DNA of 43,020 nucleotides from Escherichia phage Ptacy1537 (PQ863254.1); one strand, 5' to 3'; counted from the stretch's first letter, positions 1-43,020 are shown. Numbers and translations: made by a program. Notes: generated by a model not told the origin, from the sequence alone.

Positions 1-1914
1 ATGGCTCACATCTTCGAGAGTGAAGACGACATCCCGTTGGATTATGTCTTCGAAGAGGATTACGACGCCGACGAGGGTGCTGGAGAATACCTCAGCGACG
101 AGGACTTCGCACAGCTCCCCGCCTTAGAGCAAGAGCGTGTAATCCGAATGGAGCAGCTGAGAGAGCTGCAACGCTACTACAAAGACTTCAACACCTTCCT
201 GCTGGACGCGATGATTCACCTGGGCTTCTCCTTATCGAAGGTCCAGGCCGACATCGGCAAGTTCATGGCATACGGGCCGAAGTACCTGATGGTGCAGGCC
301 CAGCGTTCCCAGGCAAAGACAACCATCGCTGCCGCCTTCTGTGTATGGACCTTGATTCACGACCCGCGACACCGTATCCTGATTATATCAGCAGGGGGCG
401 ACCAGGCCGACGATATCTCCAAGCTGGTTACTGGCTTGATTATGGATATGGACGTCCTGGAGTGTATGCGGCCGGACAAGTCCAAAGGCGACCGCGTAAG
501 CGTTAAAAAATTCGACGTCCACTATTCACTGCGCAAGCTGGATAAGTCGGCGTCAGTATCCTGTTGCGGTATTACGGCAAACTTGCAGGGTCGGCGTGCT
601 GACCTGTTGCTGGCAGATGACATTGAGTCACAGAAGAACTCCCTGACGGCCCTCATGCGTGAGCAGCTGCTGGCGAAGACCCTGGACTTCATCTCCATCA
701 ACCAGTCTGGCCGTATCCTGTACCTGGGTACTCCGCAGTCCTCGGACTCAATCTACAACACACTCGCTGGCCGTGGTTACGCAATCCGTATCTGGCCTGG
801 CCGATTCCCTACTGCTGAGCAGCGTCCGTACTACGGTGAGTTCCTGGCACCGATGCTGGACGATATGTCGAAGAAGCACCCGGAGCTGCTGGAAGGCGGC
901 GGTGCGAACTACGACCAGGGCCGTCCCATCGAACCTTCGTTCCTGGGTGAAGACCTGCTGCAAGCGAAGGAGCGTGACCAGGGGCCGTCTTGGTTCCAGC
1001 TCCAGCACATGCTGAATACCAAGCTGATGGACGCCGAGCGCTATCCTCTGAAGTCAGAGAATATCATCGTGTTGCCTATCCGTATTGGAGACCAGCTCCC
1101 ATATGAGGTAAAACGTGGCTACGCATTCCAAGAATACCAGCTCCTCGGTAAATCTTATCGATTCGCTCTTGCGCACTCAATCAGCCCTGCTGTCGAGTAC
1201 CCAACCGGAATCAACTTCTACATCGACCCAGCGGGCGGGGGTAAAGGCAAAGGCACCCACGGAGGTGACGAAACCGGGTGGGCCTGCACAGCGTTCCTGA
1301 ATGGCAACATCTTCTGCCTCGGGTATGGCGGTGTTAAGGGTGGCTACGATGAGACCCAGCTTGATGAGCTTGCCAAGTTGGTTGCAAAGTTCAAGCCCAA
1401 TACCGTCACCATTGAGAAGAACTACGGCTTCGGTGCGTTCGCTGCTGTATTCCTGCCAATCCTCCGCAAGCACTATACAGATTGTGAGGTGCTTGAGGAT
1501 ATGGTCGGCAATGCGCAGAAAGAGATTCGTATAATCGACACTCTGGAGCCCATCATTGCCCGTGGCTCTCTCATCATGGCAGAGTCGGCTATCAAGGGAG
1601 AGCCTAACACCCTCACCAAACATCCTGAAGTAAACCGCATCACGTACATGCTGTGGCAGCAGATGGGCCTCCTCACCCGTGAGAAGGACTCCCTGGTCCA
1701 CGATGACCGTCTTGATGCACTGGCGGGCTCCTGTGCCCATTGGCAGGAGCAGCTGAAGGTTGACCAGGAGAGGGTGCTTGCGGCCCGTGCAGAGGCTGAG
1801 ATGCAGGCATTCTGGAAAGACCCACTAGGTCACAACCGCTACCGCACCCAGGGCCAAATGGCCAACCAGGGTACAAACAACATGCTGGCATACCGCCGCA
1901 ACCAACGCCGCTGA
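1..1914 (+). CDS. Terminase large subunit (T7 gp19-like)
   Basis: 637-aa ORF. N-terminal region matches the remembered T7 gp19 pattern (FxxF..., RSQAKTT, CVWTL..DPRHRILIISAGGDQADD). May wrap from the window end. Confidence 0.85.
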   Translation: MAHIFESEDDIPLDYVFEEDYDADEGAGEYLSDEDFAQLPALEQERVIRMEQLRELQRYYKDFNTFLLDAMIHLGFSLSKVQADIGKFMAYGPKYLMVQAQRSQAKTTIAAAFCVWTLIHDPRHRILIISAGGDQADDISKLVTGLIMDMDVLECMRPDKSKGDRVSVKKFDVHYSLRKLDKSASVSCCGITANLQGRRADLLLADDIESQKNSLTALMREQLLAKTLDFISINQSGRILYLGTPQSSDSIYNTLAGRGYAIRIWPGRFPTAEQRPYYGEFLAPMLDDMSKKHPELLEGGGANYDQGRPIEPSFLGEDLLQAKERDQGPSWFQLQHMLNTKLMDAERYPLKSENIIVLPIRIGDQLPYEVKRGYAFQEYQLLGKSYRFALAHSISPAVEYPTGINFYIDPAGGGKGKGTHGGDETGWACTAFLNGNIFCLGYGGVKGGYDETQLDELAKLVAKFKPNTVTIEKNYGFGAFAAVFLPILRKHYTDCEVLEDMVGNAQKEIRIIDTLEPIIARGSLIMAESAIKGEPNTLTKHPEVNRITYMLWQQMGLLTREKDSLVHDDRLDALAGSCAHWQEQLKVDQERVLAARAEAEMQAFWKDPLGHNRYRTQGQMANQGTNNMLAYRRNQRR

Positions 1915-1937
1915 AAGGCGGCTATAAGGAATATTAA

Positions 1938-2540
1938 ATGCGAGTATCTGACGTCCCATTCTGCCCGTCCATCCTGGCTGCTGCCCAGCTGCGTGTAGAG
2001 GTTTGCAAACTGTTCAACCACGCTGCCCTGATGAAGGACCGTGGCGGCACCTATGCCACTGACGTACTGGTCCCGTTCTGGACTGCTATTAAGGCCCTGG
2101 CGCAGCTGCCCAATGGCCGCCCGTACGACGGACCGTATCTGGGTGCGGGTATCCGGGACCTGCGGCCGCAGATTTACAAGTGTCTCACCTCCGTACGCAA
2201 GTTCCCACTGACCGCTAAGCCGGAGTTCGAGGCGCTATGTGATTGGGCTATTGCCACCGCTACCGCCTTGGCACCGACTGTAGATGTCACAGGCGTTACA
2301 GTAGCACCGGCCACTACCAGCATCGTAGCAGGTAACACCCGCAAGATTGTACCTACCGTGGCACCTGCTGACGCCACCAACAAGGGCGTTACGTGGACTA
2401 CCAGCGACCCGGCTGTGGCCACTGTTGCCTCTGACGGCACTGTCACTGCTGTTGCTGCTGGCACCTGCACTGTGACCTGTATCACTGTAGACGGCGGCTT
2501 CACTGCCACCACTGCGGTTACTGTAACTGAACCTGCTTAA
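1938..2540 (+). CDS. Hypothetical protein with C-terminal bacterial Ig-like (Big_2-like) domain
   Basis: 200-aa ORF with AAGGA 9 nt upstream of ATG. C-terminal about 80 aa is T/V/A-rich with VTWTTSDPAVATVASDGTVTAVAAGTCTVT, typical of Big_2 Ig-like folds. N-terminal half unrecognised. Confidence 0.55.
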   Translation: MRVSDVPFCPSILAAAQLRVEVCKLFNHAALMKDRGGTYATDVLVPFWTAIKALAQLPNGRPYDGPYLGAGIRDLRPQIYKCLTSVRKFPLTAKPEFEALCDWAIATATALAPTVDVTGVTVAPATTSIVAGNTRKIVPTVAPADATNKGVTWTTSDPAVATVASDGTVTAVAAGTCTVTCITVDGGFTATTAVTVTEPA

Positions 2541-2570
2541 TAGGGAGGCCCGGCGTACCGGGCATAGCTT

Positions 2571-3149
2571 ATGGGTATCAAAACTCGCGTAGGCTACTGC
2601 TCTGTAGCCGTCGTCCTGGCCCTGGTCAGTACCAACCACCCAGGGGAGATTCGAACCTCTAAGGAGGGCCTGGAGCTCCTCTCTGGTTATGAGGACTGCC
2701 GCACACAGGCATACCTGGACATCGTAGGAATCCCTACGTGCGGTATTGGCAGCACCTCCGGTGTCCGTATGGGCACTACCTGGACAGAGGCACAGGTGGC
2801 AGCTGCGTTCGTTAAGGACGTACAGGCGGCAGAGAAGTGCGTCCTCGTGTACTTTAACGGATACGCCATGCCGCAACCGGTGTTCGACTCTGTGACCTCT
2901 CTGGTGTTCAACACCGGATGCTGGGGTGCACGCTGGAACAACAAGCTGAACCGCCCGACTGGCATTGCTCAGTACGCTAAGGCGGAGGACTGGCAGAATG
3001 TGTGTTACAGATTGGGTGACTTCATCTACGCTGGCGGGAAGGTCTCTAATGGCCTAAAGAACCGTCGAGCTAAGGAGCAGGCTCACTGTATAAAGTGGCA
3101 AGTACCACAATCCTATGAGGGTTCCAGATGGACTCCAAATCCCCGTTGA
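2571..3149 (+). CDS. SAR endolysin (T4/P1 lysozyme-like muramidase, GH24)
   Basis: N-terminus is a weakly hydrophobic G/A/S-rich stretch (VGYCSVAVVLALVST) followed by EGLELLSGYEDCRTQAYLDIVGIPTCGIG, matching the catalytic E-D-T region of P1 Lyz / P21 R type signal-arrest-release endolysins. Confidence 0.75.
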   Translation: MGIKTRVGYCSVAVVLALVSTNHPGEIRTSKEGLELLSGYEDCRTQAYLDIVGIPTCGIGSTSGVRMGTTWTEAQVAAAFVKDVQAAEKCVLVYFNGYAMPQPVFDSVTSLVFNTGCWGARWNNKLNRPTGIAQYAKAEDWQNVCYRLGDFIYAGGKVSNGLKNRRAKEQAHCIKWQVPQSYEGSRWTPNPR

Positions 3150-3511
3150 TTAAACTGGCCGTAGTCGGCGCTGTATTGGTCGCTATGGTTATCCCGTCAT
3201 TAGTCGGGTATCACTACTACGGTAAGGTGGCAGTGCTCAAGCAGAGCGTTAAAGACCTCACCGACGACCTCGTCCATACCCAGGATACACTGGAGGCCAC
3301 CCTTGAGGGTGAGCAGCGTGCTAACCTGGCTTTATCCGAGCTTCGCAAGAAGAAGGGCTTAACCGATGCTGAACTTCAAAGTGCAAAATCCGAGCTGGAG
3401 CGTATTCACCTTCGCAACCCAGGCAACAATTGTCCTGTATTGCCTGCTGTCGCTGACAGGCTGCGGGCAGCAAACGACCAAGTACGTAAGAGTGGCTCCC
3501 TACGTCCCTGA
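3128..3511 (+). CDS. Rz-like inner-membrane spanin (i-spanin)
   Basis: 127 aa. N-terminal transmembrane segment (LIKLAVVGAVLVAMVIPSLVGY) followed by a charged coiled-coil region. Overlaps the endolysin stop. Confidence 0.6.
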   Translation: MDSKSPLIKLAVVGAVLVAMVIPSLVGYHYYGKVAVLKQSVKDLTDDLVHTQDTLEATLEGEQRANLALSELRKKKGLTDAELQSAKSELERIHLRNPGNNCPVLPAVADRLRAANDQVRKSGSLRP

Positions 3512-3662
3512 GAGCCTCTATGACCCGTGCACTCCACCAGCCTTACCTGAGGGTGTACTTGACCAGTTAATCATTGAGCAGCACGTCCTGGACCTCTATG
3601 GGACCATCTCAGGCTGCAATGATGACAAGGCTGAAATCAAGAAGCTACTCAGCGGTAAATAG
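3366..3662 (+). CDS. Rz1-like outer-membrane lipoprotein spanin (o-spanin), overlapping Rz in the +1 frame
   Basis: ORF starts inside the Rz gene in another frame and runs past its stop. Hydrophobic signal ends in lipobox LSLTGC; the mature part is Pro-rich (PYVPESLYDPCTPPALPEG). Confidence 0.5.
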   Translation: MLNFKVQNPSWSVFTFATQATIVLYCLLSLTGCGQQTTKYVRVAPYVPESLYDPCTPPALPEGVLDQLIIEQHVLDLYGTISGCNDDKAEIKKLLSGK

Positions 3663-4927
3663 TTGCCCGTTACAGTGCACTCCTCTTCCCGACTGGTGAG
3701 TGTACTGTTGCGGCCCAATTATGGCATAAAATTGTATGACCGGAGCGACCCTCGCGACACCCCTCGCTTCCCCCATAGGCCCTCCGCTTTGCACCATCGT
3801 GGAGCATTGGGCCGCCTCCGGGCACCTGGGCCTGCACTGGCAGGGCCATCATGGGCACCTATCGTGTGAGCTCCTGTAACTCCCTGTGCGACACTGTAGG
3901 CCATCACCGCTACCTACGTATCACCGTCTGGCTAATCGCCAGCCGTAGGGCCGCATAGGGCCATCTATCAGCTACTGGTTATCATCACTACTGCCTTATC
4001 GTTTATCAGAGTCGGACAAGGTAGACTCAAGGGTTATCATAGTCGGTCTGTTTAGCAGAGTGAGTACCATCACTCAGAGATTATAGTGTAGCTGAGTCCT
4101 TACTATAGCCGGGGAGTGAACCAGTGTCAACCCTATCTTATGACTATCTCACTACTCATTGTGTCGGGAGTGTCCTATTGTGTTAGACACGCGCTTAGCG
4201 TGGCTGTGCCCTTCTCTGTGCTCTTCCTATCGTGTGACAAGGGTAAGCCCTATCTCATACCTATCGTGCACTCACATTGCTTTATAGCGGCTCTTATTGT
4301 GTGTACAGGGGCGGGCTATCTGTATCCCTGTTTGCCAGCTCATCACACTGTTAACACATACCGTCTAACCATAGGGATAACCTGAGTCATACCCTACCAG
4401 TGACCTATCATCACACCTATCAAGCTATACACTGTATCCATAGTCTAATCGCCTATGGTAAGCACATAGTGATTCTACCGTTGAATATAAACATATCACA
4501 GATAGTGAGTACCTATCTGTCCACTACTAGCTCCACTGTCTAATCGCCAGTGGCTAACGTCCTATTCGTAGTCCTCCGCTACGCTCCGTACATACTCACT
4601 TCTGATACAGATAGAGAGAATTGTAACATACGTTACTACCTACCTATCCCTACCTGTAAGGCCCATTGCTTCGTTCTGTGCTCATAGAGTATGACGAATC
4701 AAACAGCACAGAGCCTGCACTCACAGTGCCTTAAATATAATCCTATTGAATACATACACTTAGCAATTAATTCGAATTTATTTGCAAATAACGCTTGCGC
4801 TTTTAGTCGGCTATACCCTATCATTCAATCACACCGCAGCAATCAGGCGGCAAGCAGTAAGAAGTACCGCTCTTTAACAATATGGTCATAGTATAGTGTG
4901 TCCTCTCAGGAGTATAGGGGATGATAC
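3663..4927. other. Large non-coding region, probable physical genome-end / terminal region in a circularly opened assembly
   Basis: No credible ORF (only short, overlapping, hydrophobic or low-complexity ORFs). Visibly lower GC, many CCTATC-type short repeats and three CTAATCGCC hairpins. Lies between the lysis cassette and the early promoter, where T7-like genomes have their ends. Confidence 0.5.
3928..4553 (+). repeat. Three hairpins sharing a CTAATCGCC core with different complementary stems
   Basis: 3928-3942 CTGGC-TAATC-GCCAG; 4438-4458 CCATAG-TCTAATCGC-CTATGG; 4533-4553 CCACTG-TCTAATCGC-CAGTGG. Stems are perfect inverted repeats that differ in sequence while the loop core is kept. Confidence 0.6.
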
Positions 4928-5299
4928 ATGACACTAAGCAAAGTACAACAAGCCGCGAACAAACAGGCCCAACGGTTAGCCAAACAGGCAGCCCGACAGG
5001 CCCAGAGTACCACAGAGCGTGCCCGTGCTGTGGCCTTGTGCAAAGCTGGCTCCTCAAAGGCTGGCAAGGCGGAGGCCCGCAGGATGGAGCTTGGAAAGCT
5101 GGCGTATAGTAAGACGGTCGGCGGTATGAATTATGCGGTGGATGCACGCAAGCAGCGCAAGCAGGATAAGCCCGCCGCCGCGAAGTACACTAAGCAAACA
5201 GACTTTGGTACACGTACCGCTACCTACGGTAGCAAGACAGATGCAACGGTTAACAGTTACCGCCGGGCTAAATCAGGCGATAACCTGCCACGTAAATAG
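4928..5299 (+). CDS. Hypothetical basic low-complexity protein (doubtful gene)
   Basis: 123-aa K/R/A/Q-rich ORF upstream of the early promoter. Weak RBS. Could be spurious. Confidence 0.3.
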   Translation: MTLSKVQQAANKQAQRLAKQAARQAQSTTERARAVALCKAGSSKAGKAEARRMELGKLAYSKTVGGMNYAVDARKQRKQDKPAAAKYTKQTDFGTRTATYGSKTDATVNSYRRAKSGDNLPRK

Positions 5300-5312: not shown

Positions 5313-5341
5313 TTGACATTAACGAGGATGCACCATACTAT
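5313..5341 (+). promoter_or_regulatory. Candidate host sigma70-type early promoter
   Basis: TTGACA (5313-5318), 17-nt spacer, TACTAT (5336-5341). Sits upstream of the early gene block on the coding strand. Confidence 0.45.
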
Positions 5342-5868
5342 GACCATACAGACAGCGGAGACCGACACGGCAAACAACGTTAGGTGAGTCTCCAATGTTT
5401 GGGCCTTGCACTCGCAAGCGCTTTTGTGAAAGAGACTTTGATGTACACATTGTGGAAGTACCCAGCACAGAGGAAACTCCGGTGATGGGAAGTGGAAGGT
5501 GCTTAAGTGCGATTGCCACGAGGAACCGCGATGGGGAAGCGTAGTATAGGGACGATAACCCTTTAAAGATATCAGGCCGGGTGAGATGGTAGGTCAGTTA
5601 TAAAATCCATCGATAATAGTGTTTGGCGAGCATTCCCTCCACCGAACGGGAGAAATCGCATCCAGCGTCACTGAGCGGGACAAGTCTCAAACGTATTGGA
5701 TTAACATCTGCTCCTGAGTAGGACGGGTAACGCGGTTAGCGCATGGTGACACTGTGAAGTGGTTCGATGCAATGCTTGACGCCTACCGACGCGAAAGGGA
5801 GCGGGTTAACATATGAGTATTCAATGGTGAGTATTCATACCTTTAACCAAACGATGAGGATTTACAAA

Positions 5869-6429
5869 ATGGCTACTACCAAAACCGCTAAAGCTACCAA
5901 AACCACTTCTGATTTCGTCAAGCTGGCTATGATTCCGGCTGATTTGGATAAGGCGATTGACCGTGTGTGTGTCGCTTCCAAGACGCTGCAATCTGACATC
6001 CACGATGTGGCCGTGGCTATCATGGTTCACACCTACAACCACAACGATTTCAGCAAGGCACAGACCCTTGTCGATGGCCTGGGTGAGGGTGTGCGCCGTG
6101 GTGCTCTGGTTGAGTGGTTCCAGGCCGCAGGTCTGAAGGTAAACGCTGAGGCTGGCGCTTTCTCTGGCTTCAACAAGGCCAAGATGGAAGATAAGTGGGA
6201 TAAGGTTAAATCCACGCCGTGGTATACCATGAAGCCGGAGCGCCCGTTTGCTGGCTTTGACCTGATGGCTGAGCTTGAGCGCCTGCTGTCTAAGGCTGAG
6301 AAGGCGACTAAGAAGAACGCCGACACGCCGGAGGACCAACGTGCTGAGGGTTACACTTTTGTGTGCGATGCCGACAAGCTGGCCGCCCTGCGTGCGATGA
6401 TTCACCCGGCAACGCAGACTGTTAACTAA
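5869..6429 (+). CDS. Early hypothetical protein
   Basis: ATG at 5869 with GAGGA 8 nt upstream (chosen over the 5767 start in the ORF track). 186 aa, no recognised domain. Confidence 0.6.
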   Translation: MATTKTAKATKTTSDFVKLAMIPADLDKAIDRVCVASKTLQSDIHDVAVAIMVHTYNHNDFSKAQTLVDGLGEGVRRGALVEWFQAAGLKVNAEAGAFSGFNKAKMEDKWDKVKSTPWYTMKPERPFAGFDLMAELERLLSKAEKATKKNADTPEDQRAEGYTFVCDADKLAALRAMIHPATQTVN

Positions 6430-6490
6430 GTGCTATCCGCAAGCCTGCTCAATGAGTGGGCTTGATGACTATCACTGAGGAGTTATCACG

Positions 6491-6883
6491 ATGAGCAAAA
6501 CAAAGATTCTTACCTTCCTGCGGGAGTGGTTACAGTATTCCGACGCCTGCATGAAGGCACACAAGGCGGGCGAGGAGAAGCCGCACTCGCAGACGTTCAC
6601 GCCGTATGATGGGTTGTGTGGCAACCTCGACCGCTGGGCGCGTGCTTACGCCCGCCGGGAGCAGCTTAACTTTGATGCGGAGCGCCAATTTAACCGGGGC
6701 TTATGTACGGCGCTGAAAGACCTGTTCCGGGCCGATGGCCTGTGTACCTGTTGGACGTTCGGAGAGCGTAGCTTTAAGATGCGCTTTGACCGGGAGTCTA
6801 ACGCACGGTGCCCTAACCGCCGCCGCTGGGTGAAGAATACTATCGCACAGCTTGAGAAGGAGCTATCCGATGGCAATCACTAA
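6491..6883 (+). CDS. Early hypothetical protein, paralog family member A
   Basis: 130 aa. Shares FL(R/T)xWL...F(T/R)PY(D/T)GLC with the 7166..7489 product. Confidence 0.6.
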   Translation: MSKTKILTFLREWLQYSDACMKAHKAGEEKPHSQTFTPYDGLCGNLDRWARAYARREQLNFDAERQFNRGLCTALKDLFRADGLCTCWTFGERSFKMRFDRESNARCPNRRRWVKNTIAQLEKELSDGNH

Positions 6884-7169
6884 GATATCCTTTCTGGCCC
6901 GCTACCACACGCGGGAAATCAGGGAAGTAATACTATCCCCGTGCTGGCCTACTCTTGAGAAAGAGGTCACGGTACAGCACGATAAAGAGGCCGTGTTCGT
7001 ACTCGGGCCGGGGCCATGTGGCAAGACGGTTGACAAGCTGGATGTACGGTATCAGGAGCACGATATTGTTATCACTCAGTACCACGATGATGGTACACTT
7101 AAAGAATTTGCATACCAGCGCGAAGATGTGCTGGGTCGTATAACTATTGAGCGGAGTGTATTTCAATGA
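6870..7169 (+). CDS. Early hypothetical protein
   Basis: ATG at 6870 preceded by GAGAAGGAG. 99 aa. No recognised domain. Confidence 0.5.
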   Translation: MAITKISFLARYHTREIREVILSPCWPTLEKEVTVQHDKEAVFVLGPGPCGKTVDKLDVRYQEHDIVITQYHDDGTLKEFAYQREDVLGRITIERSVFQ

Positions 7170-7489
7170 CCAAAGAGATGAGAGAGTTTCTCACAGCGTG
7201 GCTTGATTGGGCCACGAGCGGCGACGTTAAAGACCATAAATACGGCTGTATATTCCGCCCGTATACCGGGCTGTGTGCTGCTGCGGATTACTGGACAGTA
7301 GACGATGGCCCGGCGCACTACGAACTCATTAGCGAGTTGGGTGATATGCTGGAAGCCGGTGGGTTGGCCACGGACTATCCTTTTGACACCCCGCGTAGCT
7401 ATGACGCTGCCGCAGAGGCAGGCACACAGCACCTTAACCCGGCCCGCCTGGCGTGGGTACGTGCTAAGCTGGAGGTGTCAGATGAGTGA
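7166..7489 (+). CDS. Early hypothetical protein, paralog family member B
   Basis: 107 aa. EFLTAWLDWA...FRPYTGLCAA parallels TFLREWLQYS...FTPYDGLCGN of 6491..6883. ATGA-type overlap with flanking genes. Confidence 0.6.
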   Translation: MTKEMREFLTAWLDWATSGDVKDHKYGCIFRPYTGLCAAADYWTVDDGPAHYELISELGDMLEAGGLATDYPFDTPRSYDAAAEAGTQHLNPARLAWVRAKLEVSDE

Positions 7490-7898
7490 TATCTTTGTTG
7501 GTTTAAAAGTGCGGGCCCGGAAAGATAGCTTGGGCACTGCGATTGAGAACGAGGGGCGCACTGCGGTGGTGTGTACTGTGGATGCAAATAAGGTATTCTA
7601 CAAATACAAGCACCGCCCGACAGTGTACCAGATTACCACTAACCGCTTTTGGGACCGCTTTGAAAGTGTCGAAGATGATAAACCTACTGGCGTCTCCGCG
7701 ACTGCTGGTCATTGTGCTGGTAATGGTGGTCTGCGCGGGCACAGTGTTGGAGATGTATTCCCTGTGGTCGTTTATCAGCGCGGGACTCCTGGCTTTATAA
7801 CGCACTGGCTACGCCTGCCGGATGGCCGGGACATCGGCCCGTACCATAGCTACGATGATGTACACCGTGCCGCAGCATGGCACAAAGATAACCTGTGA
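7482..7898 (+). CDS. Early hypothetical protein
   Basis: ATG at 7482 overlapping the upstream stop; 138 aa (MSDIFVGLKV...). The longer 7305 start in the ORF track would overlap the upstream gene. Confidence 0.5.
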   Translation: MSDIFVGLKVRARKDSLGTAIENEGRTAVVCTVDANKVFYKYKHRPTVYQITTNRFWDRFESVEDDKPTGVSATAGHCAGNGGLRGHSVGDVFPVVVYQRGTPGFITHWLRLPDGRDIGPYHSYDDVHRAAAWHKDNL

Positions 7899-7908
7899 GG
7901 ATATTACT

Positions 7909-8139
7909 ATGACTGTTAAGATTAAAGAACGTACCCCGGCTAAGACACTGGTTCATTTCCGCAACATAAAGCCGGGCCAGTTCTTCGTGTATTCGTCAGA
8001 ACACAGCGAGCGCAATCTGCAATTACGTACCGACACCGGTGCTGTTATCGTAGAGACCGGGGTACATGACGAGGAGGACATCTACTCTAAAGATGCGGTG
8101 TTTGAAGTTATCCGCGATGTAGATATCTTCTGGGGCTAG
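7909..8139 (+). CDS. Early hypothetical protein
   Basis: ATG at 7909 with GAGGA upstream. 76 aa. Confidence 0.5.
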   Translation: MTVKIKERTPAKTLVHFRNIKPGQFFVYSSEHSERNLQLRTDTGAVIVETGVHDEEDIYSKDAVFEVIRDVDIFWG

Positions 8140-8199
8140 TGGTTTGCCGAAGGGCCTGCACTCGCGGGCCTTTTATCAATATCACTGTGGAGTTATGAG

Positions 8200-9106: not shown

Positions 9107-9116
9107 GGATAACACT

Positions 9117-35527: not shown

Positions 35528-35530
35528 TGA

Positions 35531-38500
35531 ATGGCTGAGTTTAAAGTAGCGCTAGACAAAAGCACGCCGTATGACGAGATGGCCCGCGCCACCGAGGAGA
35601 AATACGGACTGCCAGAGGGCCTGCTAAAGACCACCCTGCTTATTGAGAACAGAAACAACATCAAGAACCGCGTGTCTCCGAAAGGGGCGCGTGGTATTGG
35701 CCAGATTATGCCTGCCACTGCCCAGGGCTTGGGGTACAAGCCGGAGGATGCAGATGACCCGGTTAAGTCCATTGAGATGATGGGCAAGCTGTACTCCGAG
35801 CTGAATAAAACGTACGATGGCGACGTAGGGGCCATGATGGCCCACTACAACGGCGGTACTGCGGCAGGGTCTGCTTACGTTGAGGGTAAGGGTTTAAACC
35901 CGGAGACGGCGGATTACATCAAGTATGCCGCGCCGTACCTGGAGCAGACTGGTAAACCTTCGAAGTACCAGACTCAACTCCAAGGCGCTATGGACGAAAC
36001 ATTGCTGGGAGAGGCACCGAGCGACACCGCCATCTTCAACGAGACCGAAGGGGATGAGGCGTTCGGCCAGGACCTCTCAGCTAAGTTTGAGAAGCAGCTT
36101 CAGGACGAAGCACAGTTCTTCAACATGTCACTGTGGGAAGCGGCTAAGACCGGCTTCCGCAGCACCATGACCGACGCTATCGCCCATGCGTACTCCCGCG
36201 AGGATGATATCGACTTCAACCTGTCACAGTCGCACTTCGACCGTATCCAGCAGGAGTTCCCGAATGGGCTCGACCAGTCATCAACAGATAGACTTTACAA
36301 CTCTCGAAGCGATTCTGACTTTGAGTTCAACCTCGGACGCGTTAGAGATTCGCAGAAGTTTGCACAGACGCTTGGATTCCAATCTGGCCTCGACAAGTAC
36401 GCAGGTTATGCGGCTACGTTCGCAGGCGGCTTGGCTGACCCTGCGGCCCTGCCAGCAGGCACCTTCGGCCTGGCTGGGCGTGTCATCAAGGGCGGTAGTA
36501 TCGCCGCAAGTGCTAGTCGTATGGCTGTTGAAGGTGCTGTTGGTGGTGCCATTGTGTCGCCGGTTACACAGTTTGCAGACAAGGGCACAGTCTCTGCTGA
36601 GGAGCTCATGGAGAACATGGCAGCGTCTGCGGTCATGTCTACGGCAATCGGTGGAATCCTGTCTCGTGTGGGAAATCCAAAAGGATGGCGCGAGGAAGTT
36701 GATTCCTCGGTCACGGGACGAGTGGATGGCAATCCCGACTTTGTGGGTCCTCAACGACCTAAGCCAGTGGATTCTGATGGTGATGCTGTAGACTTCCGCA
36801 ACGCTACGGACACGTCGGTATCCACAGATGGGGCTGTAAGTGGAGTAGGCCCTACGGCTGTTAAGCGTGCTGCTGCGGAGTGGAACGAAACGCCTGAGAT
36901 TGGCACCGAGGCTATCCAGGCACGCCGCCAGAAGTATTACGGAAGCAAGTGGCGTGAGAAAATCTTCGGGTGGTCTGACTCTGAGGGCGTACGTCTCGCA
37001 ACCTCTAAAAGCAAAATTGCACGGTTCGTCGGCGCTATGTGGGCCGGTAACTCAGGTGCGATTGGCAAGGTAGAGGCACGTACGGCTGCTGTGTTGAAGG
37101 ACCAGCTCAAGGAGCAGCTCGACTTCACCTACATCCCGGCGATGAAGGAGATTTATGAGGGATACCTGACACCAGGCCAGAAGTATGACTACATGGCAGG
37201 CGGCTCTAAGGATGCGCAGCAGGCATTCTCCCGTGAGGTGCAGCTGGAGCGCTACCGCCACCGCGAGTACCGGATGCAGAACGAGAACAGCAGCAAGGGC
37301 TACCAGTCTACCGCCCCGGCGGCTATTCAGCGTGCAGCCAAGCTCCTGGACGACCATTACGCTGACACCAAAGCCATGCACATGCAGGCCCAGACAGAGC
37401 ACGCCGCTCAGCTCAAGGACAGTGACCCCATCGGTTACATTGAGCAGCGCCCGGACTTCGTTAAGCTGCAAAGCTCGGATACGGCGACGCGCAAAGCGTT
37501 CTTGGAAATGGTCAAAGATGACTACCGAGCAGAGGCCCAGGCCAAGATTAACAAGATGCGCGGTGAGCGGGAGGCGTGGATTACTCAGGCGTATAAGCGT
37601 GCTGAGCAAGCGCTAGATGGTCAGAAGGGCGAAGGCAAGCCTGCTAACCCGCTGTGGGTTGACGAGTTCCTCAAGAACCCGGACGCCTACTTCGACAAGC
37701 ATATCTCGCAGCTCTCGAAGAAGATTGCAGCGGAGATGGACAAGCGTGCCAGCCACTGGTGGGATAACGCCCTCAGCGACCCTGAGACGCGCTATCAGAA
37801 CTCAGAGGCCTCCTTGCTTAGCCTGGCCAGAGAGATGTCTGACGAGTGGTTTACGGGACGTGAGGTTGACGCTGAGTTGGTCAAGTCGTTCCAGCAGGCA
37901 CTGACCAGCAAGTGGGCAGACACCTCCCGTCGGGAACTGCGCATGACCAATAGCCGCCAGGTTAACGGTGAGCAGGTGTATCTCCTGGACATGTTCCAGC
38001 ATGATGTATTCGGAACTATGTCGAACAACATCGCAGATACAGCGGGCCGGGTAGCAATGGCTAAGATGGGGTGGAAGACGGAGCAGGATATCGCCGACAC
38101 ACTATCAGCCATGCGTGAGGAGGGTGTGCCTACTCGTGAGCTGGAGGCTGCGAAGCATATCAGTGACCTTATTCTTAACCGCGCACGTGGCCTGGATAAC
38201 AATCCCCTGGTTATGGCTGCGAGCAACATCACCCACGCAGCAATGATGGGTAAGCTCGGTACGTCTATTCTGGCGGACCTGCCAACCATTATCGGCAACC
38301 TCGGCATCGGCGGGATGACCCGCGCCCTAGGTGACATGGCCAAGCAGGTGGTTAACGGGGAGCTGTTCGTTAAGAACGGGCGCAAGACTGCCCTGGGTAA
38401 CGACCTGGACGCATACCTGACAGGTCTGAACGGGCACGACCACGAGCTGTGGATTCCTCAGCAGATTAACGCTGACGGGCAAGCTATGGACATGTCCGGC

Positions 38501-39358
38501 TCAATCCTCCGCCGCTCGGCTGCTGCTGCACGATTCACCAACACCCTCAGCTTCGCTAACGCCATCAGCCGCTCTATAGGCACCGCTGTGACACGCACGA
38601 CCAACAAGTCACTGCACAAGTACCTGCGCACCGGTAAGGGCATCAGTGATGCGCGTATGGTGGATGCAGGCATGTCGGCGAAGCTGCGTCAGCGTATTAA
38701 GGCGCAGTTCGACGCCCACGGCGGCAAGAATGACTTCGGCCTGGATAAGTGGACAGACCCGTATGCGAAGGAGAGCTTCATCTCAATCGCACACCGCTTC
38801 ACTAACCAGAACCGCATCGACCACCAATCAGCAGGAGAACTTCCGAAGTGGACCAGAGACAACATGCTCGGCGTTCTATTTGGCCGTTTCCGTACAATTG
38901 GGATTCGAGCCCAGGAGAAACTTCTTGTCCGAAATTTAACGATGGCAGACAGCAACACCCTGGCAATGTTAACCGCTGGGTTGGCTTTCACTACCTTCCT
39001 GGCATACGGTCGTATCTACTTAGACGCTGCCACCTCGAAGGATGGTGCGAAGGTACTGAAAGACCGTCTTACGCCGATGGGCGTGGCAAATACAGTGACC
39101 CGTCTGTCATCGGTAACTGGCCTAGCCTCGGAGGGTCTTGGCCTGCTGGACTTGATGACTGGTGGCGGAGTCAAGGGCGGCGGTGATACACCGCTTACTG
39201 GAGCTATCGGAAACATTACAGGTGCCCTCGGCGCTACTGGTTCGGCGCTTACCGGTAACGGTGAGTGGTCCCAGGCGGGTGCGGCTTCCTTCAAGTTGCT
39301 TCCCGGTGCAAACACTTATCTTCTGATGGGATTGCAGAAATCTATCAGTGACGACTAA
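35531..39358 (+). CDS. Internal virion protein with N-terminal lytic transglycosylase (SLT) domain (T7 gp16-like)
   Basis: 1275 aa. N-terminal region with LLIENRNN...GARGIGQIMPATAQGLGY...MMAHYNGG matches the SLT/goose-lysozyme-like fold signature, as in T7 gp16. Confidence 0.75.
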   Translation: MAEFKVALDKSTPYDEMARATEEKYGLPEGLLKTTLLIENRNNIKNRVSPKGARGIGQIMPATAQGLGYKPEDADDPVKSIEMMGKLYSELNKTYDGDVGAMMAHYNGGTAAGSAYVEGKGLNPETADYIKYAAPYLEQTGKPSKYQTQLQGAMDETLLGEAPSDTAIFNETEGDEAFGQDLSAKFEKQLQDEAQFFNMSLWEAAKTGFRSTMTDAIAHAYSREDDIDFNLSQSHFDRIQQEFPNGLDQSSTDRLYNSRSDSDFEFNLGRVRDSQKFAQTLGFQSGLDKYAGYAATFAGGLADPAALPAGTFGLAGRVIKGGSIAASASRMAVEGAVGGAIVSPVTQFADKGTVSAEELMENMAASAVMSTAIGGILSRVGNPKGWREEVDSSVTGRVDGNPDFVGPQRPKPVDSDGDAVDFRNATDTSVSTDGAVSGVGPTAVKRAAAEWNETPEIGTEAIQARRQKYYGSKWREKIFGWSDSEGVRLATSKSKIARFVGAMWAGNSGAIGKVEARTAAVLKDQLKEQLDFTYIPAMKEIYEGYLTPGQKYDYMAGGSKDAQQAFSREVQLERYRHREYRMQNENSSKGYQSTAPAAIQRAAKLLDDHYADTKAMHMQAQTEHAAQLKDSDPIGYIEQRPDFVKLQSSDTATRKAFLEMVKDDYRAEAQAKINKMRGEREAWITQAYKRAEQALDGQKGEGKPANPLWVDEFLKNPDAYFDKHISQLSKKIAAEMDKRASHWWDNALSDPETRYQNSEASLLSLAREMSDEWFTGREVDAELVKSFQQALTSKWADTSRRELRMTNSRQVNGEQVYLLDMFQHDVFGTMSNNIADTAGRVAMAKMGWKTEQDIADTLSAMREEGVPTRELEAAKHISDLILNRARGLDNNPLVMAASNITHAAMMGKLGTSILADLPTIIGNLGIGGMTRALGDMAKQVVNGELFVKNGRKTALGNDLDAYLTGLNGHDHELWIPQQINADGQAMDMSGSILRRSAAAARFTNTLSFANAISRSIGTAVTRTTNKSLHKYLRTGKGISDARMVDAGMSAKLRQRIKAQFDAHGGKNDFGLDKWTDPYAKESFISIAHRFTNQNRIDHQSAGELPKWTRDNMLGVLFGRFRTIGIRAQEKLLVRNLTMADSNTLAMLTAGLAFTTFLAYGRIYLDAATSKDGAKVLKDRLTPMGVANTVTRLSSVTGLASEGLGLLDLMTGGGVKGGGDTPLTGAIGNITGALGATGSALTGNGEWSQAGAASFKLLPGANTYLLMGLQKSISDD

Positions 39359-39375
39359 TATATAGCCAGGGAAGG

Positions 39376-39400
39376 CTGATTCGTCATACTCTAAGAACAC
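39376..39400 (+). promoter_or_regulatory. Candidate phage RNA polymerase promoter (copy 3) upstream of the tail fibre gene
   Basis: CTGATTCGTCATACTCTAAGAACAC, 25 nt upstream of the tail fibre ATG. Confidence 0.65.
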
Positions 39401-39424
39401 TACACGAACCAATGAGGCTCCGCG

Positions 39425-41680
39425 ATGGACAAGTCTACCCTTGAATGGATGACGTCGGATTCTACAGAACCAGATTACCTTACTATGGTTACGTACACTG
39501 CCGACGGCACTACGGACCAATACGAGTTTAACTTCCCAGGTGGCTACCTGAACAAGGCGGACATTAAAGCGTACATGTTCGACCCAGCAGGCGTTGTCCG
39601 TACGGACCTTACTGTAGCGTTCATTGCTGACAACATTGTTAAGCTGACCCCGGAACAGGCGGCCGGTAACTTAGTCACCATCTACCGCGACACTCCAAAA
39701 GAGCTGCCGCTGGTTAGCTTTACCGACGGCGCTATGATTGAGGCTCGCAACCTTGACCGTAACGCAAAGCAGTGTATCTTCGCCGTCGCTGAAATCCTGG
39801 ACAAGTACAATATCGTGTACAGCCAGGTAGAGCTGGCGGAGCGATATGCAACTATTGCCCGAGACGCGGCGGATACCGCAACAACCCAGGCCGAGTTCGT
39901 CGCCTACATTTACGAGCGGTTTAAGATTACCGACGAGATGATGGCGGAGATTAACCGTGCACGTGATGACGCGCAGTTTGCAGCAGGCCGGTCCGAGCAG
40001 GCCCAAGACGCCGCTGAGCGTGCGCGTGATGCAACGGAAGCTCTGGCCACAAGTGCTGGAATCTTCCAGTCTATTGCAGCGGGCCTTGCAGGCACCTCCA
40101 CCGGCCAATACTTCACGGTAGGGCAGGGTGTGGATTCCGAGACGGCTGCCATCACGTACCTGAACGACAACGGTACGGCTGTGCCTGTATTCAAGACGGC
40201 GGGTACTCAGGCGTATGTAAACCTGAATAAGAGGTTTATGGACGTATTCCTGGAAGGCACCTACGGTAACGCACTCGCCGGTTTCGTGGATGACGAGGAC
40301 AACTCGCCGCTGTTTATCGACGACAAGGGCGAGGTCGTAATCAATGACATCAACTTCCTGAAACAGGTGCAGGACATCATTAACGAATTGGTAGCAATTC
40401 GTAACGTGTTCATCTCTGAATCAGACAGCTACATCCAGAAGGGTGGATTCATGGATGATGAAGGCAAGCTGCCTATCTACTTCGACGAGAAGGGTGATGT
40501 GTGGCTGGGAGATGGCCCGGTTAACCTGACTCAGTTCGTAAAAGAGGGCGACCCCGTTCTGGCTAACCGCGTGCTGGCTTTAGAAACTCAGTATGCACGC
40601 CTGAATGATAAGTTCTTCGAGGCGGATTCAGACTACAGCCAGGTAGCAGGCTTCGTTGATGATGAAGGCAAGCTGCCCCTGTATGTGGACAAGTTTGGTG
40701 ATGTTTGGATTGGCGCAGGTCCGGTTAACCTTAGCGAGTTCGTTAAGAGCGGCGGCGGCATTCCTTCTGAAGAGTTCACTGCATTGAAGGCGCAGGTGGC
40801 CAACCACGAGCGTGCCATCTATGGAACGGGCAACATCGTCTGCGAAGGCGATTCCCTGACTGCCGGTGCCGGTGCGGTATCCCGTACTGGTTATGTAGAG
40901 CGCCTTCGTGCCCGCCTACAGTCCCAGGGCATTGTGGTGACTAAGCGTGCAGTCGGAGGCACGGGCTCTGCATCCATCGCAACCCGACAGGGTGGTTATG
41001 TTAACCTGCTGACGCTGGAGAATAACAGCATCCCAGCTGCCCGCGTCCCGGTTAATATCCTGTCCAGTACGCAAACACCAATCACCAACCAAGGCGGTGG
41101 CCCTATCAAGGGTACTATAATGGGTATTCCTGGTGTAGTTGCTGCTACCTTCTCGGGAACTGAGCGTACCTCCTACACCTTCACTCGCGACGTGGCAGGC
41201 ACCGTGGCCACCTACGTGGACCCGGAGACCCCGTTCATCAAACAGCGGGATGGTATGGAGGGCGACATCGCTATCCTGTGGCCGGGCCGCAACGACACAT
41301 GGCGCACCGATATGGGTGACGAGGTAATGAATGCGGTTGACGCGATGGTGGCTCACCTGGTATCCCAGCGTAAGCAGTTCGTCGTAATGTCCGTGCTCAA
41401 CGGTGAGTATGTTAACGAGTACAAAGGCGGGCCAGTATACGACCGCATCCTGGGCTATAACAACCGCCTCAAGTATAAGTACCCGGAGCAGTATTGCGAG
41501 ATTCGTAATGTCCTGGTACGTGCATACGACCCAAGCAAACCGCAGGACGTGCTAGACTTCCAGCATGATATCCCACCAGCCAGCCTGCGTGCGGACGGCA
41601 TTCACCTGCTGGACCCTGGCTACGACATCGTTGAAGAGACTGTGTATACCCATCTCAAGAACAGAGGATTAGTTAAATAA
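39425..41680 (+). CDS. Tail fibre protein: T7 gp17-like N-terminal adaptor domain, three internal repeats, C-terminal SGNH/GDSL hydrolase domain
   Basis: N-terminus (LVSFTDGAMIEARNLD) parallels T7 gp17 (LVDFTDGSILRAYDLN). Three 68-aa repeats (GF(V/M)DDEGKLP...GDVW(I/L)G.GPVNL..FVK). C-terminal IVCEGDSLTAGAG ... DGIHL matches the SGNH esterase catalytic Ser block and Asp-x-x-His block. Confidence 0.75.
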   Translation: MDKSTLEWMTSDSTEPDYLTMVTYTADGTTDQYEFNFPGGYLNKADIKAYMFDPAGVVRTDLTVAFIADNIVKLTPEQAAGNLVTIYRDTPKELPLVSFTDGAMIEARNLDRNAKQCIFAVAEILDKYNIVYSQVELAERYATIARDAADTATTQAEFVAYIYERFKITDEMMAEINRARDDAQFAAGRSEQAQDAAERARDATEALATSAGIFQSIAAGLAGTSTGQYFTVGQGVDSETAAITYLNDNGTAVPVFKTAGTQAYVNLNKRFMDVFLEGTYGNALAGFVDDEDNSPLFIDDKGEVVINDINFLKQVQDIINELVAIRNVFISESDSYIQKGGFMDDEGKLPIYFDEKGDVWLGDGPVNLTQFVKEGDPVLANRVLALETQYARLNDKFFEADSDYSQVAGFVDDEGKLPLYVDKFGDVWIGAGPVNLSEFVKSGGGIPSEEFTALKAQVANHERAIYGTGNIVCEGDSLTAGAGAVSRTGYVERLRARLQSQGIVVTKRAVGGTGSASIATRQGGYVNLLTLENNSIPAARVPVNILSSTQTPITNQGGGPIKGTIMGIPGVVAATFSGTERTSYTFTRDVAGTVATYVDPETPFIKQRDGMEGDIAILWPGRNDTWRTDMGDEVMNAVDAMVAHLVSQRKQFVVMSVLNGEYVNEYKGGPVYDRILGYNNRLKYKYPEQYCEIRNVLVRAYDPSKPQDVLDFQHDIPPASLRADGIHLLDPGYDIVEETVYTHLKNRGLVK

Positions 41681-42453
41681 TGGGCAATTTCATCAAGATT
41701 GGCACCACCCTGACCAACCCGAACATCACCAAGCTGACTCGGGATTCACTCATTGATGCCAACACCGTATTTATTGCGGACCTGAGCCGCAAGGCATCCA
41801 ACCCGGCGCAGGTGGACCTGTCCAACGGCAATCTTCTGTATAACCTGACTAACGGTGGCCTAAACGCCACCACCATCACGGGCACTAAGATTCCGTTCTC
41901 TGCGGCGGGTAAATATCTCACCAAAGAGGTTGGCGATATCTCGTCCCGTATCCAGCTGCCGGACACCTGTAAGGTGCTCGCTACCGACAACAGCTTCCAG
42001 TTTACCCTGTGGTTTACTGAGCTGGCCGGACAGGATACTACGGGCTCTCAGGGTCTGGCAGGATACGCATCAAACTCCAGCAACCAGATGGCCTTCGCGT
42101 TCTACTGGTTCGATGGCCAGTATTTCCTGGGTTGTGCGGGGAACCGGCACCCAATCGCAACACCTGCTGTAGGCGCAGTAAGCCAGTTGACGGTGGCCTG
42201 TGACCGTAATCTGGGAATCCGTAAGTATTACTACAACGGGGCCCTAGTGCGTTCTGAGACCAATCAGGTTATCAATGATATGCCTATTCCGGTAGCTGGT
42301 TCTAACCCGTGGCTGTTCTACCTGGGCGGTGGCTTCAACTCCCGCCGCAACGTTAAGCTGCACCGTGTATGGTTGGATGTAAACGGCCCCGGCGATAACT
42401 TTGACGCCAAAGTAGTTCGCGACTGGAACGAGAACAAACTTAAATTCGTATAA
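41680..42453 (+). CDS. Hypothetical tail-associated protein (possible lectin-like or receptor-binding accessory protein)
   Basis: 257-aa ORF, TAATG-coupled to the tail fibre gene. Composition suggests a beta-rich fold. No firm domain call. Confidence 0.5.
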   Translation: MGNFIKIGTTLTNPNITKLTRDSLIDANTVFIADLSRKASNPAQVDLSNGNLLYNLTNGGLNATTITGTKIPFSAAGKYLTKEVGDISSRIQLPDTCKVLATDNSFQFTLWFTELAGQDTTGSQGLAGYASNSSNQMAFAFYWFDGQYFLGCAGNRHPIATPAVGAVSQLTVACDRNLGIRKYYYNGALVRSETNQVINDMPIPVAGSNPWLFYLGGGFNSRRNVKLHRVWLDVNGPGDNFDAKVVRDWNENKLKFV

Positions 42454-42459
42454 GGACCT

Positions 42460-42648
42460 GTGATGTGGCTGATTGATGACCTCCTGGACCGGGCGGGGCC
42501 CCTTCCGGGGGTCACGGTATCCGGTGTTACTCTGTTAGGGCTTAACCTACAGACTACGGTGTATGTTCTTACTATCGTATACCTGGTACTGCAAATTGGC
42601 CGCTTTATTTGGAAGTGGCTTGACGAATGGAGAGGTAAAGATGACTGA
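42460..42648 (+). CDS. Putative holin (pinholin candidate)
   Basis: 62 aa. Hydrophobic segment VTLLGLNLQTTVYVLTIVYLVLQIGRFIW followed by a charged C-terminus. Lies just before small terminase, as T7 gp17.5 does. Confidence 0.5.
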   Translation: MMWLIDDLLDRAGPLPGVTVSGVTLLGLNLQTTVYVLTIVYLVLQIGRFIWKWLDEWRGKDD

Positions 42649-43020
42649 CTTCGAAGACGACCTGCCTGAGAAGTCCCCGGACGAGCTCGACAAGATTGCT
42701 GAACAGGAGAAGAAGGATGCTGAGTTCCTCGAAAGACTGTCCAACATGTCTAACGAAGAGTTAGCCAAGCTCCTCCTGAATAATTCCCTGAAGCAGCTCC
42801 TGGTTACTATAAACAAGGGCTGGGCCACTGCGTCGGATATAAACACCGCCCGACAGTTTCTCAAGGACAACAACATCGGCATTGTACCTACCCGCAGTAA
42901 TGCTGCTGGGGCCCTCCAGAAGAAGCTCAAAGAACGTGCAGATGCTGCAAAGGACGGGGCACACCATAACGTTGCTGACCTCGACAACGTGGGTATCGAT
43001 GACTTTATTCAGAGGCACTA
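42641..43020 (+). CDS. Terminase small subunit (T7 gp18-like), 3'-truncated at the window end
   Basis: ATG at 42641 opens a frame with no stop before the window end. The pattern resembles the remembered T7 gp18. Probably continues across the circular junction towards position 1. Confidence 0.5.
   Translation, partial: MTDFEDDLPEKSPDELDKIAEQEKKDAEFLERLSNMSNEELAKLLLNNSLKQLLVTINKGWATASDINTARQFLKDNNIGIVPTRSNAAGALQKKLKERADAAKDGAHHNVADLDNVGIDDFIQRH

Follow-up and report, generated by a model that had tools for sequence, protein, structure and literature searches.

A podophage gene layout in which the RNA polymerase (RNAP) gene closes the DNA-metabolism block, and in which a holin gene lies before the terminase genes and an endolysin gene after them, is already known from a lineage that was described in 2013–2016 and is now the ratified subfamily Melnykvirinae. 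In phage Ahp1 (described in 2016), the RNAP gene is the last of the class II genes, ORF39 carries an N-terminal lytic transglycosylase, the holin (ORF41) precedes maturases A and B, and the endolysin (ORF45) follows the large terminase (PMC5014404). Trees of the DNA polymerase (DNAP), RNAP and capsid protein led to the proposal of an "Ahp1-like subgroup" (viz. Ahp1, phiAS7, phi80-18, GAP227, phiR8-01, and ISAO8), which was set apart from the T7-, SP6- and phiKMV-like groups (PMC5014404). The same arrangement is found in phage phi80-18, where one phage promoter follows the RNAP gene and two others precede the capsid gene and the fibre gene (PMC7316996). In the present work, we have analysed a 43,020-nt stretch of DNA from Escherichia phage Ptacy1537 (PQ863254.1; referred to in full as the window, with positions counted from its first letter), whose gene layout had been read in an original prediction as a mixture of T7 and phiKMV features. 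We regard it as nearly certain that the window is a complete lytic podophage genome from the genus Cullenvirus (Melnykvirinae, Autographivirales), and that its layout is the conserved ancestral layout of this subfamily, inherited vertically.

Our megablast searches have identified close relatives, all of them Klebsiella phages, with 86–88% nucleotide identity to the window, which cover 80–87% of it in the case of the phages K59PH2, KYP, and 6937 and 67–82% in the case of vB_Kpn1-P3, GP-4, and vB-Kvc-Y10. KYP, 6937, and K59PH2 are placed by the NCBI taxonomy in the genus Cullenvirus, subfamily Melnykvirinae. In our own BLAST-based approximation of VIRIDIC, which is not the official tool, the window is 75.5–76.5% similar to K59PH2, KYP, 6937, and GP-4, 28.6% similar to GAP227, 1.5% to phiKMV and 0.4% to T7. 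The thresholds of the International Committee on Taxonomy of Viruses are a nucleotide similarity of at least 70% for a genus and at least 95% for a species; the window exceeds the former and, at ~76% to K59PH2, KYP, and 6937, falls short of the latter, and it is therefore a member of Cullenvirus but a species separate from these, on these figures probably a new one. Two contigs assembled from public sequencing runs (Logan contigs DRR865494_2306 and DRR865495_20149) are closer still, being 94–97% identical to the window across most of the shared sequence and 79–90% identical in the early-gene region, and the capsid and 257 amino acid (aa) proteins that they encode are identical to those of the window. 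Hence, the same or a sister species was present in the samples behind both contigs.

The original prediction had allowed that a close known relative with identical gene order would make this phage an ordinary member of a described genus, and such relatives exist. A table of tblastn matches shows the window to be gene-for-gene collinear, allowing for permutation, with K59PH2, KYP, and GAP227, and the same order is found in the deposited annotations of K59PH2, KYP, GP-4, 6937, GAP227, and phi80-18, being identical in K59PH2, KYP, 6937, and GP-4. The phage is thus an ordinary new relative of known Klebsiella phages, and its layout no new kind of mosaic. The core proteins give the same placement. 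Six neighbour-joining trees (RNAP, DNAP, large terminase subunit TerL, major capsid protein, portal, and tail tubular protein B (tube B); seven taxa each, without bootstrap) all join the window to Cullenvirus and then to GAP227 and phi80-18, and the core proteins are 47–81% identical to those of the GAP227-like Melnykvirinae vs. 16–41% to those of T7, SP6, and phiKMV. The RNAP, for example, is 96.6% identical to that of K59PH2, 57% to that of GAP227 and 26–29% to those of T7, SP6, and phiKMV, while the DNAP is 97.6% identical to that of GP-4, 40% to that of phiKMV and 18–19% to those of T7 and SP6. Nothing was found that contradicts membership in Cullenvirus and the Melnykvirinae.

All of the individual features named in the original prediction are indeed present, and together they make up the Melnykvirinae layout (RNAP gene at the end of the middle block, a transglycosylase domain at the N-terminus of the largest internal protein, holin-TerS-TerL-X-endolysin-Rz/Rz1). 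Profile searches confirmed that the RNAP gene (22283–24778) is the last of the DNA-metabolism block and is followed by the virion genes, and this single-subunit RNAP also identifies the phage as a member of the Autographivirales; the gene starts ~18.5 kb from the inferred left end of the genome (window position about 3745). Its start codon is GTG, as in the RNAP gene of phi80-18, where it is the sole non-ATG start of the genome (PMC7316996). Primase (10882–11562) and helicase (11552–12802) are encoded separately. As in T7, a holin (Phage_holin_2_2) precedes the small terminase subunit TerS, the end of its gene overlapping the TerS start, and an endolysin of the GH24 family, with an N-terminus that by its sequence resembles signal-arrest-release (SAR) endolysins, follows TerL together with Rz/Rz1. 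The SLT lytic transglycosylase domain of the gp16-like internal virion protein is N-terminal (aa 17–113, about nt 35579–35869), again as in T7 (gp16, aa 15–127) and likewise in GAP227 (gp40, aa 18–117), and neither gp36 nor gp37 of phiKMV gives an N-terminal SLT match in a Pfam profile search. The N-terminus of this protein is 28% identical to that of T7 gp16, and part of its body (aa 800–933) matches phiKMV gp37 weakly, at 26% identity. What was called a T7-type structural module holds as a gene order (portal-scaffold-capsid-tail tubular protein A (tube A)-tube B-internal proteins-fibre) but not as a T7-specific one, since SP6 and phiKMV have the same order, which therefore does not discriminate among the three. 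The marks of a T7-like phage (Studiervirinae), viz. an early RNAP at the left end, a fused gp4 primase-helicase and a gp3.5 amidase, are not found, and neither are those of a phiKMV-like phage (Krylovirinae/Phikmvvirus), viz. contiguous holin-SAR endolysin-Rz-Rz1 genes after TerL and close sequence kinship: the holin gene is upstream of TerS, none lies between TerL and the endolysin, and similarity to the phiKMV genome is very low.

The window opens exactly at the start codon (ATG) of TerL, the stop codon of TerS (TA|A) straddles the end/start junction with its last A as window base 1, and in alignment an independent Logan contig runs unbroken over the 43020/1 junction; the window is therefore a complete phage genome in circularly permuted form. 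All called genes, including every sizeable open reading frame (ORF) with homologs, lie on the + strand. The sole long non-coding stretch, which is also lower in GC, spans about 3663–4900, and composition is uniform elsewhere. Within this stretch, positions 3819–4318 align at 83% to positions 64–584 of the direct terminal repeat (DTR) of GP-4, and the right end of GP-4 aligns to 3658–4318. As the non-coding stretch aligns with the GP-4 DTR and left-end region, the physical genome ends probably lie near 3745, with a repeat of ~570 bp collapsed to one copy in the circular assembly, and the full genome is probably about 43.6 kb long. The order Autographivirales (the T7 supergroup) is characterised by ~40-kb genomes with genes on one strand and direct terminal repeats; the size and the strand are seen directly here and the repeat through alignment to GP-4, for a collapsed circular assembly cannot display the repeat itself. 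Because the window is permuted, the lysis genes that follow TerL occupy the right end of the virion DNA.

Within the genus, identity to the window drops in four places, viz. the early genes (45–99% aa identity), the gp7-like gene at 25087–25509 (65%), a block at 20032–22280 (61–78%), and the tail fibre. In the 20032–22280 block, the polynucleotide kinase, the dNMP kinase and a 51-aa ORF are 61–78% identical to their counterparts, vs. 85–97% for the flanking genes, which suggests that the block may have been replaced locally by DNA from a source other than the known Cullenviruses. Cullenvirus fibres match aa 1–~265/370 of the window fibre only; its C-terminal ~285 aa are SGNH/GDSL-like, with ~30% identity to proteins of Stenotrophomonas, Rhodococcus, and Gordonia phages and a Lipase_GDSL_2 signal of 30.5 bits, below the gathering score of 32.9 bits. 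The 257-aa protein encoded next to the fibre had zero tblastn matches among 50,697 phage records and no BLASTP similarity to the 253–256-aa proteins encoded at the equivalent position in four relatives; its identical copy on Logan contig DRR865494_2306 was noted above. The fibre C-terminus and the 257-aa gene are an ordinary host-range cassette replacement, and real mosaicism in the window is limited to the usual sites, viz. the early genes, the nucleotide-metabolism block, and this cassette.

One further difference from the relatives is a TGA (29446–29448) in frame within the tube A gene (29350–29934), at an exact 17-nt tandem duplication (TGACGCCCTAGTCCAGG; 29446–29462 and 29463–29479). Compared with four relatives, 17 nt have been lost and the next 17 nt (TGACGCCCTAGTCCAGG) doubled, with length and downstream frame kept, so that a 39-nt stretch of the window reads …PLIGG*RPSPGDALVQ… where the relatives have …PLIA(A/T)ARSRLADALVQ… of equal length. 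The gene runs uninterrupted in K59PH2, KYP, GP-4, and Logan contig DRR865495_20149, which is otherwise near-identical to the window across the flanking 1.7 kb; no other frame disruption was seen against the near-identical Logan contig, the remaining gaps being alignment noise in the divergent 25087–25509 allele. Searches for the 34-nt tandem duplication gave no match in IMG/VR viral contigs or JGI metagenome contigs, a pattern of its flanks with a free 22-nt gap gave none in IMG/VR viral contigs, and the source contig of the window was not found among the IMG/VR or JGI contigs searched. The TGA is most likely a local assembly or consensus error, in which case the reads would be expected to show GCTACAGCGCGGAGTCGGT where the window has the duplication; it is less likely that the phage is a defective variant or that the stop is recoded. 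The codon before the TGA is GGC, and an in-frame GGT stands 15 nt downstream. A ribosomal hop would take off at this GGC and land on the GGT inside the 17-nt duplication to give …PLIGGDALVQ…, and readthrough with Trp would give …PLIGGWRPSPGDALVQ….

The original prediction had left two explanations of the mixture, a lineage between the T7 and phiKMV layouts or modular exchange. The former stands in so far as this is a separate lineage with a layout that is neither that of T7 nor that of phiKMV, and the latter, exchange between T7-type and phiKMV-type phages, is not supported, as all six core proteins group alike. A recent recombinant would combine a phiKMV-type replication and RNAP backbone with an ejectosome protein and a holin-terminase segment of T7 type, and some matches do point this way: the DNAP, helicase, primase, ligase, exonuclease, and endonuclease VII match phiKMV at 32–40% and T7 barely, the holin matches T7 gp17.5 (31%) and not the phiKMV holin (tblastn), and the SLT domain aligns to the T7 gp16 N-terminus. 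However, identity to T7, SP6, or phiKMV does not exceed 41% in any module, none is conspicuously T7-like in sequence, and the structural proteins lie at roughly equal distances from the three phages, a clear lean toward phiKMV being confined to the DNAP and other replication proteins; the body of the gp16-like protein weakly resembles phiKMV gp37, so that the whole protein is not a T7 import; and SP6 shares the split of holin-TerS-TerL from a downstream endolysin. Moreover, this combination is a fixed feature of at least four genera (viz. Cullenvirus, Cronosvirus, Pokrovskaiavirus, and Ahphunavirus), which places any exchange before the subfamily, and as these layouts are fixed in genera infecting Klebsiella, Cronobacter, Yersinia, and Aeromonas, any shuffling predates the divergence of those genera. 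A recent T7 × phiKMV recombinant, rejected on the tblastn identities and the six trees, is very improbable; judged by these comparisons, the lineage is old and coherent.

The layout does differ from those of both type phages and the genome is less than 95% similar to any named species, but a named genus already holds relatives of ~76% similarity and identical gene order, and the lineage has been ratified as Melnykvirinae, so that an unrecognised new genus or subfamily between the T7-like and phiKMV-like phages is scarcely conceivable. The probability that two phages were joined in silico is equally negligible. Such a chimera could be suspected in a computationally re-oriented circular contig with a local anomaly such as the 17-nt loss and duplication in the tube A gene, but the window is collinear over its full length, junction included, with five isolates that were sequenced independently and with two separate Logan contigs, on which ground a chimera was rejected, and composition is uniform outside the non-coding terminal region. 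Some points qualify the assignment of the window to Cullenvirus with an inherited layout. Known Cullenviruses have nothing that corresponds to the fibre C-terminus and the 257-aa gene, and the in-frame TGA in the essential tube A gene means that the record is either slightly mis-assembled or that of a defective variant. The similarity values are the approximation described above, the functions given for the SAR endolysin, the holin and the promoters are read from sequence, and the host, most likely of the Klebsiella group, is judged solely from the hosts of the relatives. The features of the window are summarised in Table 1.

Table 1. Features identified in the 43,020-nt window, with the matches on which each assignment rests
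Feature	Position	Strand	Evidence and remarks
TerL, large terminase subunit	1-1914	+	Pfam Terminase-T7_RNaseH-like 1.4e-32; phrog_17672/38; 97% aa to K59PH2/KYP, 69% to GAP227
200-aa protein, C-terminal Ig-like (Big_2) domain, aa 116-193	1938-2540	+	Pfam Big_2 8.4e-16; phrog_215
GH24 endolysin	2571-3149	+	Pfam Phage_lysozyme 1.6e-24, aa 40-169
Rz-type i-spanin	3128-3511	+	phrog_214 1.2e-11; N-terminal transmembrane domain aa 3-32
Rz1-type o-spanin lipoprotein	3366-3662	+	Pfam LysC 4.3e-8; phrog_456; lipobox LTGC
Terminal-repeat homolog (GP-4 584-bp DTR)	3745-4318	.	Alignment to annotated GP-4 DTR
Fourth promoter-like motif copy	4678-4702	-	3 mismatches to consensus; 0 matches in 100 shuffles
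First early gene	4928-5299	+	phrog_9286; positional counterpart of GP-4 gene 0001
Sigma-70-like early promoter	5313-5341	+	TTGACA-17-TACTAT; same site as "host promoter" annotated in GP-4
Early block, ~14 small ORFs, mostly without assigned function	5767-10830	+	PHROG matches
SAM-lyase/"methyltransferase"-family gene, in early block	8705-9106	+	Logan annotation PF23780 S-AdoMet_lyase
DNA primase, separate gene	10882-11562	+	phrog_8634 2.1e-61; 42% to GAP227 primase, 32% to phiKMV gp14
DnaB-like helicase, separate ORF	11552-12802	+	phrog_19 9.4e-60; Pfam AAA_25; 99% to K59PH2, 36% to phiKMV gp15
ATP-dependent DNA ligase	13175-14134	+	phrog_114 5e-60
Nucleotidyltransferase	14158-14742	+	phrog_1614 2.7e-27
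DNA polymerase I family	14717-17242	+	phrog_17/9556; start refined to ATG 14717, GAGG upstream
phrog_862 protein, phiKMV gp21-like	17254-18084	+	SSB in GP-4 annotation
5'-3' exonuclease	18084-19061	+	phrog_107 3.2e-49
Endonuclease VII	19592-20032	+	phrog_423 1.2e-32
Metallo-phosphoesterase, divergent allele	20032-21066	+	phrog_221 3.7e-105; 73% to K59PH2/KYP, 74% to GAP227
Polynucleotide kinase/phosphatase	21063-21560	+	phrog_415
dNMP kinase	21553-22128	+	phrog_139
Single-subunit RNAP, GTG start	22283-24778	+	Pfam RNA_pol 1.1e-84 and RPOL_N; phrog_414 1.4e-234
Candidate phage-RNAP late promoter 1, downstream of RNAP gene	24869-24893	+	Motif CTGATTCGNNATACTCTAAGAACAC; same position as phi80-18 P2
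Small virion genes	24908-25087 and 25502-25891	+	phrog_2746, phrog_5112, phrog_6529 across these plus 25087-25509
T7 gp7-like "host range and adsorption" virion protein	25087-25509	+	Same PHROG set; between the small virion genes
Portal (head-tail connector)	25888-27393	+	phrog_449 2.1e-172
Scaffolding protein	27393-28175	+	phrog_1018 3.6e-52
Candidate phage-RNAP late promoter 2, upstream of major capsid gene	28186-28210	+	Motif CTGATTCGNNATACTCTAAGAACAC
Major capsid protein	28256-29299	+	phrog_267 1.2e-84; 95.7% to K59PH2, 81% to GAP227
Intrinsic terminator after major capsid gene	29307-29338	+	9-bp stem, 7 GC pairs, then TTTTTT; annotated at same site in GP-4
Tail tubular protein A (T7 gp11 homolog)	29350-29934	+	phrog_446 for part after in-frame stop
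Tail tubular protein B (nozzle)	29960-32518	+	phrog_457 1.5e-183; PF25675 Phage_nozzle
Internal virion protein, gp14-like	32520-33299	+	phrog_5745 9.8e-67
Internal virion protein, gp15-like	33299-35527	+	phrog_3883 1.7e-186
Internal virion protein, gp16-like, 1275 aa	35531-39358	+	Pfam SLT 5.4e-12; phrog_342 1e-230
Candidate phage-RNAP late promoter 3, upstream of tail-fibre gene	39376-39400	+	Exact consensus match; same position as phi80-18 P4
Tail fibre	39425-41680	+	Pfam Phage_T7_tail 2.8e-11; conserved N-terminal T7-type adaptor
257-aa orphan, position of fibre-associated gene	41680-42453	+	Weak phrog_19357 match 2.7e-5
T7-family class II holin, 61 aa	42463-42648	+	Pfam Phage_holin_2_2 (PF10746) 3.8e-7; phrog_920 2.9e-16; hydrophobic segments
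TerS, small terminase subunit	42641-43020(+1)	+	Pfam DNA_Packaging_2 6.3e-16; phrog_9441 2e-41

The published signature of SAR endolysins defines a catalytic triad E-8aa-D/C-5aa-T (PMC4640515), and we have looked for this together with a weakly hydrophobic, Gly/Ala/Ser/Thr-rich N-terminal transmembrane domain after basic residues and a T4-lysozyme-type domain. The endolysin of the window fits this signature in its sequence: the N-terminus is weakly hydrophobic (MGIKTRVGYCSVAVVLALVST; aa 2–23), with K4 and R6 followed by VGYCSVAVVLALVST, the triad reads E41-8aa-D50-5aa-T56, and the protein is 30% identical to phiKMV gp45 with the triad aligned. It would be predicted to be exported by the Sec system, tethered to the membrane and released upon depolarisation. 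The two genes after it show the features of a two-component spanin, viz. an i-spanin with a transmembrane domain and an o-spanin with a lipobox, encoded in overlapping (+1) frames; the overlap spans 3366–3511, and Rz1 extends past the 3' end of Rz, i.e., it is not embedded in it. The position of the Ig-like gene between TerL and the endolysin gene is occupied in GAP227 by gp44 ("Hoc-like head decoration"), and the protein is 33% identical to GAP227 39164–39484.

A 25-nt motif (CTGATTCGNNATACTCTAAGAACAC) has four matches in the window vs. none expected. Three of these, the candidate late promoters, are kept in every Cullenvirus genome examined, and they agree in position with the late promoters of GAP227 and phi80-18, where the consensus differs; a weaker copy lies at about 24775. 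Scans of the window for sigma-70 promoters and terminators gave totals at or near shuffle expectation overall, and from their output we have used the promoter at 5313–5341 and the terminator at 29307 alone, both of which coincide with GP-4 annotations. Read in this manner, the regulatory anatomy would fit a phiKMV-type programme, with host RNAP serving all early and middle genes as far as the RNAP gene and phage RNAP serving the late ones. The early block is the most variable part of the genome when compared with K59PH2 and KYP by tblastn.

The fourth match lies on the minus strand (4678–4702), ~360 nt inside the left repeat, where it faces the genome end and adjoins an AT-rich stretch (4734–4795). 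It is shared, in this orientation, by K59PH2, KYP, GP-4, and Logan contig DRR865494_2306 but not by 6937, whereas GAP227 and phi80-18 carry their fourth copy on the + strand. An origin of replication, concatemer processing or antisense transcription are possible candidate roles. We give very little credence to the idea that either the tube A TGA is genuine and tolerated, by readthrough or a hop, or this leftward motif serves replication or concatemer processing and not expression. It is much more likely than such a recoding of the TGA, or such a role for the leftward motif, that the SGNH-type fibre C-terminus and the orphan 257-aa gene are a receptor-binding cassette new to sequenced phages.

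From homology and the anatomy described above, a life cycle can be proposed. From sigma-70 promoters close to the inner edge of the left terminal repeat, host RNAP would transcribe the early genes. Transcription would then cross the genes for replication and nucleotide metabolism until it reached that of the phage RNAP, and this enzyme would go on to initiate at the three late promoters, of which the first follows the RNAP gene and the second and third precede the capsid and fibre genes, respectively. The gp14-, gp15- and gp16-like internal proteins would build the ejectosome, with the SLT domain of the gp16-like protein cutting peptidoglycan at DNA entry. At lysis, the T7-family holin would depolarise the membrane and thereby free the Sec-exported, membrane-tethered GH24 endolysin, after which the Rz/Rz1 spanins would break the outer membrane.

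The biological import of the supposedly mosaic layout is small, for it is the textbook layout of an established subfamily, and the genome can be entered as that of a probable new species of Cullenvirus. The host-range cassette, which is unlike those of the relatives, may be of interest to those who build panels of Klebsiella phages, and a check of the probable sequence error in the tube A gene is advisable before deposition or use.

A comparison with known systems shows where the window agrees with other phages and where it differs. T7 (Studiervirinae) resembles the window in the N-terminal SLT domain of gp16 and in the holin gene just upstream of TerS, and SP6 (Salmonella; Molineuxvirinae) in the holin gene just upstream of TerS and the endolysin gene downstream of TerL (holin-TerS-TerL with the endolysin further downstream, SP6 35399–39332), so that the split lysis cassette is not specific to the Melnykvirinae. 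Unlike the window, however, both have an RNAP gene that lies early, near the left end, and a fused primase-helicase, and in T7 the lysozyme is an amidase encoded in the middle region, with the spanin genes between TerS and TerL. PhiKMV (Pseudomonas; Krylovirinae) shares the RNAP gene at the end of the DNA-metabolism block, the separate primase and helicase, and Rz/Rz1 after TerL, as well as the published SAR endolysin gp45, which belongs to the same GH24 family and is likewise encoded after TerL; its replication proteins are the closest outside the Melnykvirinae (32–40%). It differs in that the holin gene lies directly between TerL and the endolysin, and in that the virion lysozyme motif is annotated on gp36.

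In contrast, the layout of the other Melnykvirinae is that of the window throughout. GAP227 (Cronobacter; Cronosvirus), phi80-18 (Yersinia; Pokrovskaiavirus), and Ahp1 (Aeromonas; Ahphunavirus) have separate primase and helicase genes, an RNAP gene that is last in the middle block and an N-terminal SLT domain, and the subfamily shares the holin-TerS-TerL order, followed by one accessory gene and endolysin-Rz-Rz1 at the right end, and three late promoters at the same positions, although with a different consensus and with 44–81% aa identity in core proteins. The closest agreement is with Cullenvirus (K59PH2, KYP, 6937; also GP-4, vB_Kpn1-P3, and vB-Kvc-Y10). The window is unlike these phages in the early genes, the 20.0–22.3 kb block, the fibre C-terminus and the downstream ~257-aa gene, and the in-frame TGA of tube A is found in the window only; but gene order and genome size (~43 kb) are the same, the late-promoter motif and its sites are identical, the gp14-like internal protein is 90% identical, and TerL, helicase, DNAP, RNAP, portal, major capsid protein, and the internal proteins encoded at 33299–35527 and 35531–39358 are 94–99% identical at the aa level.

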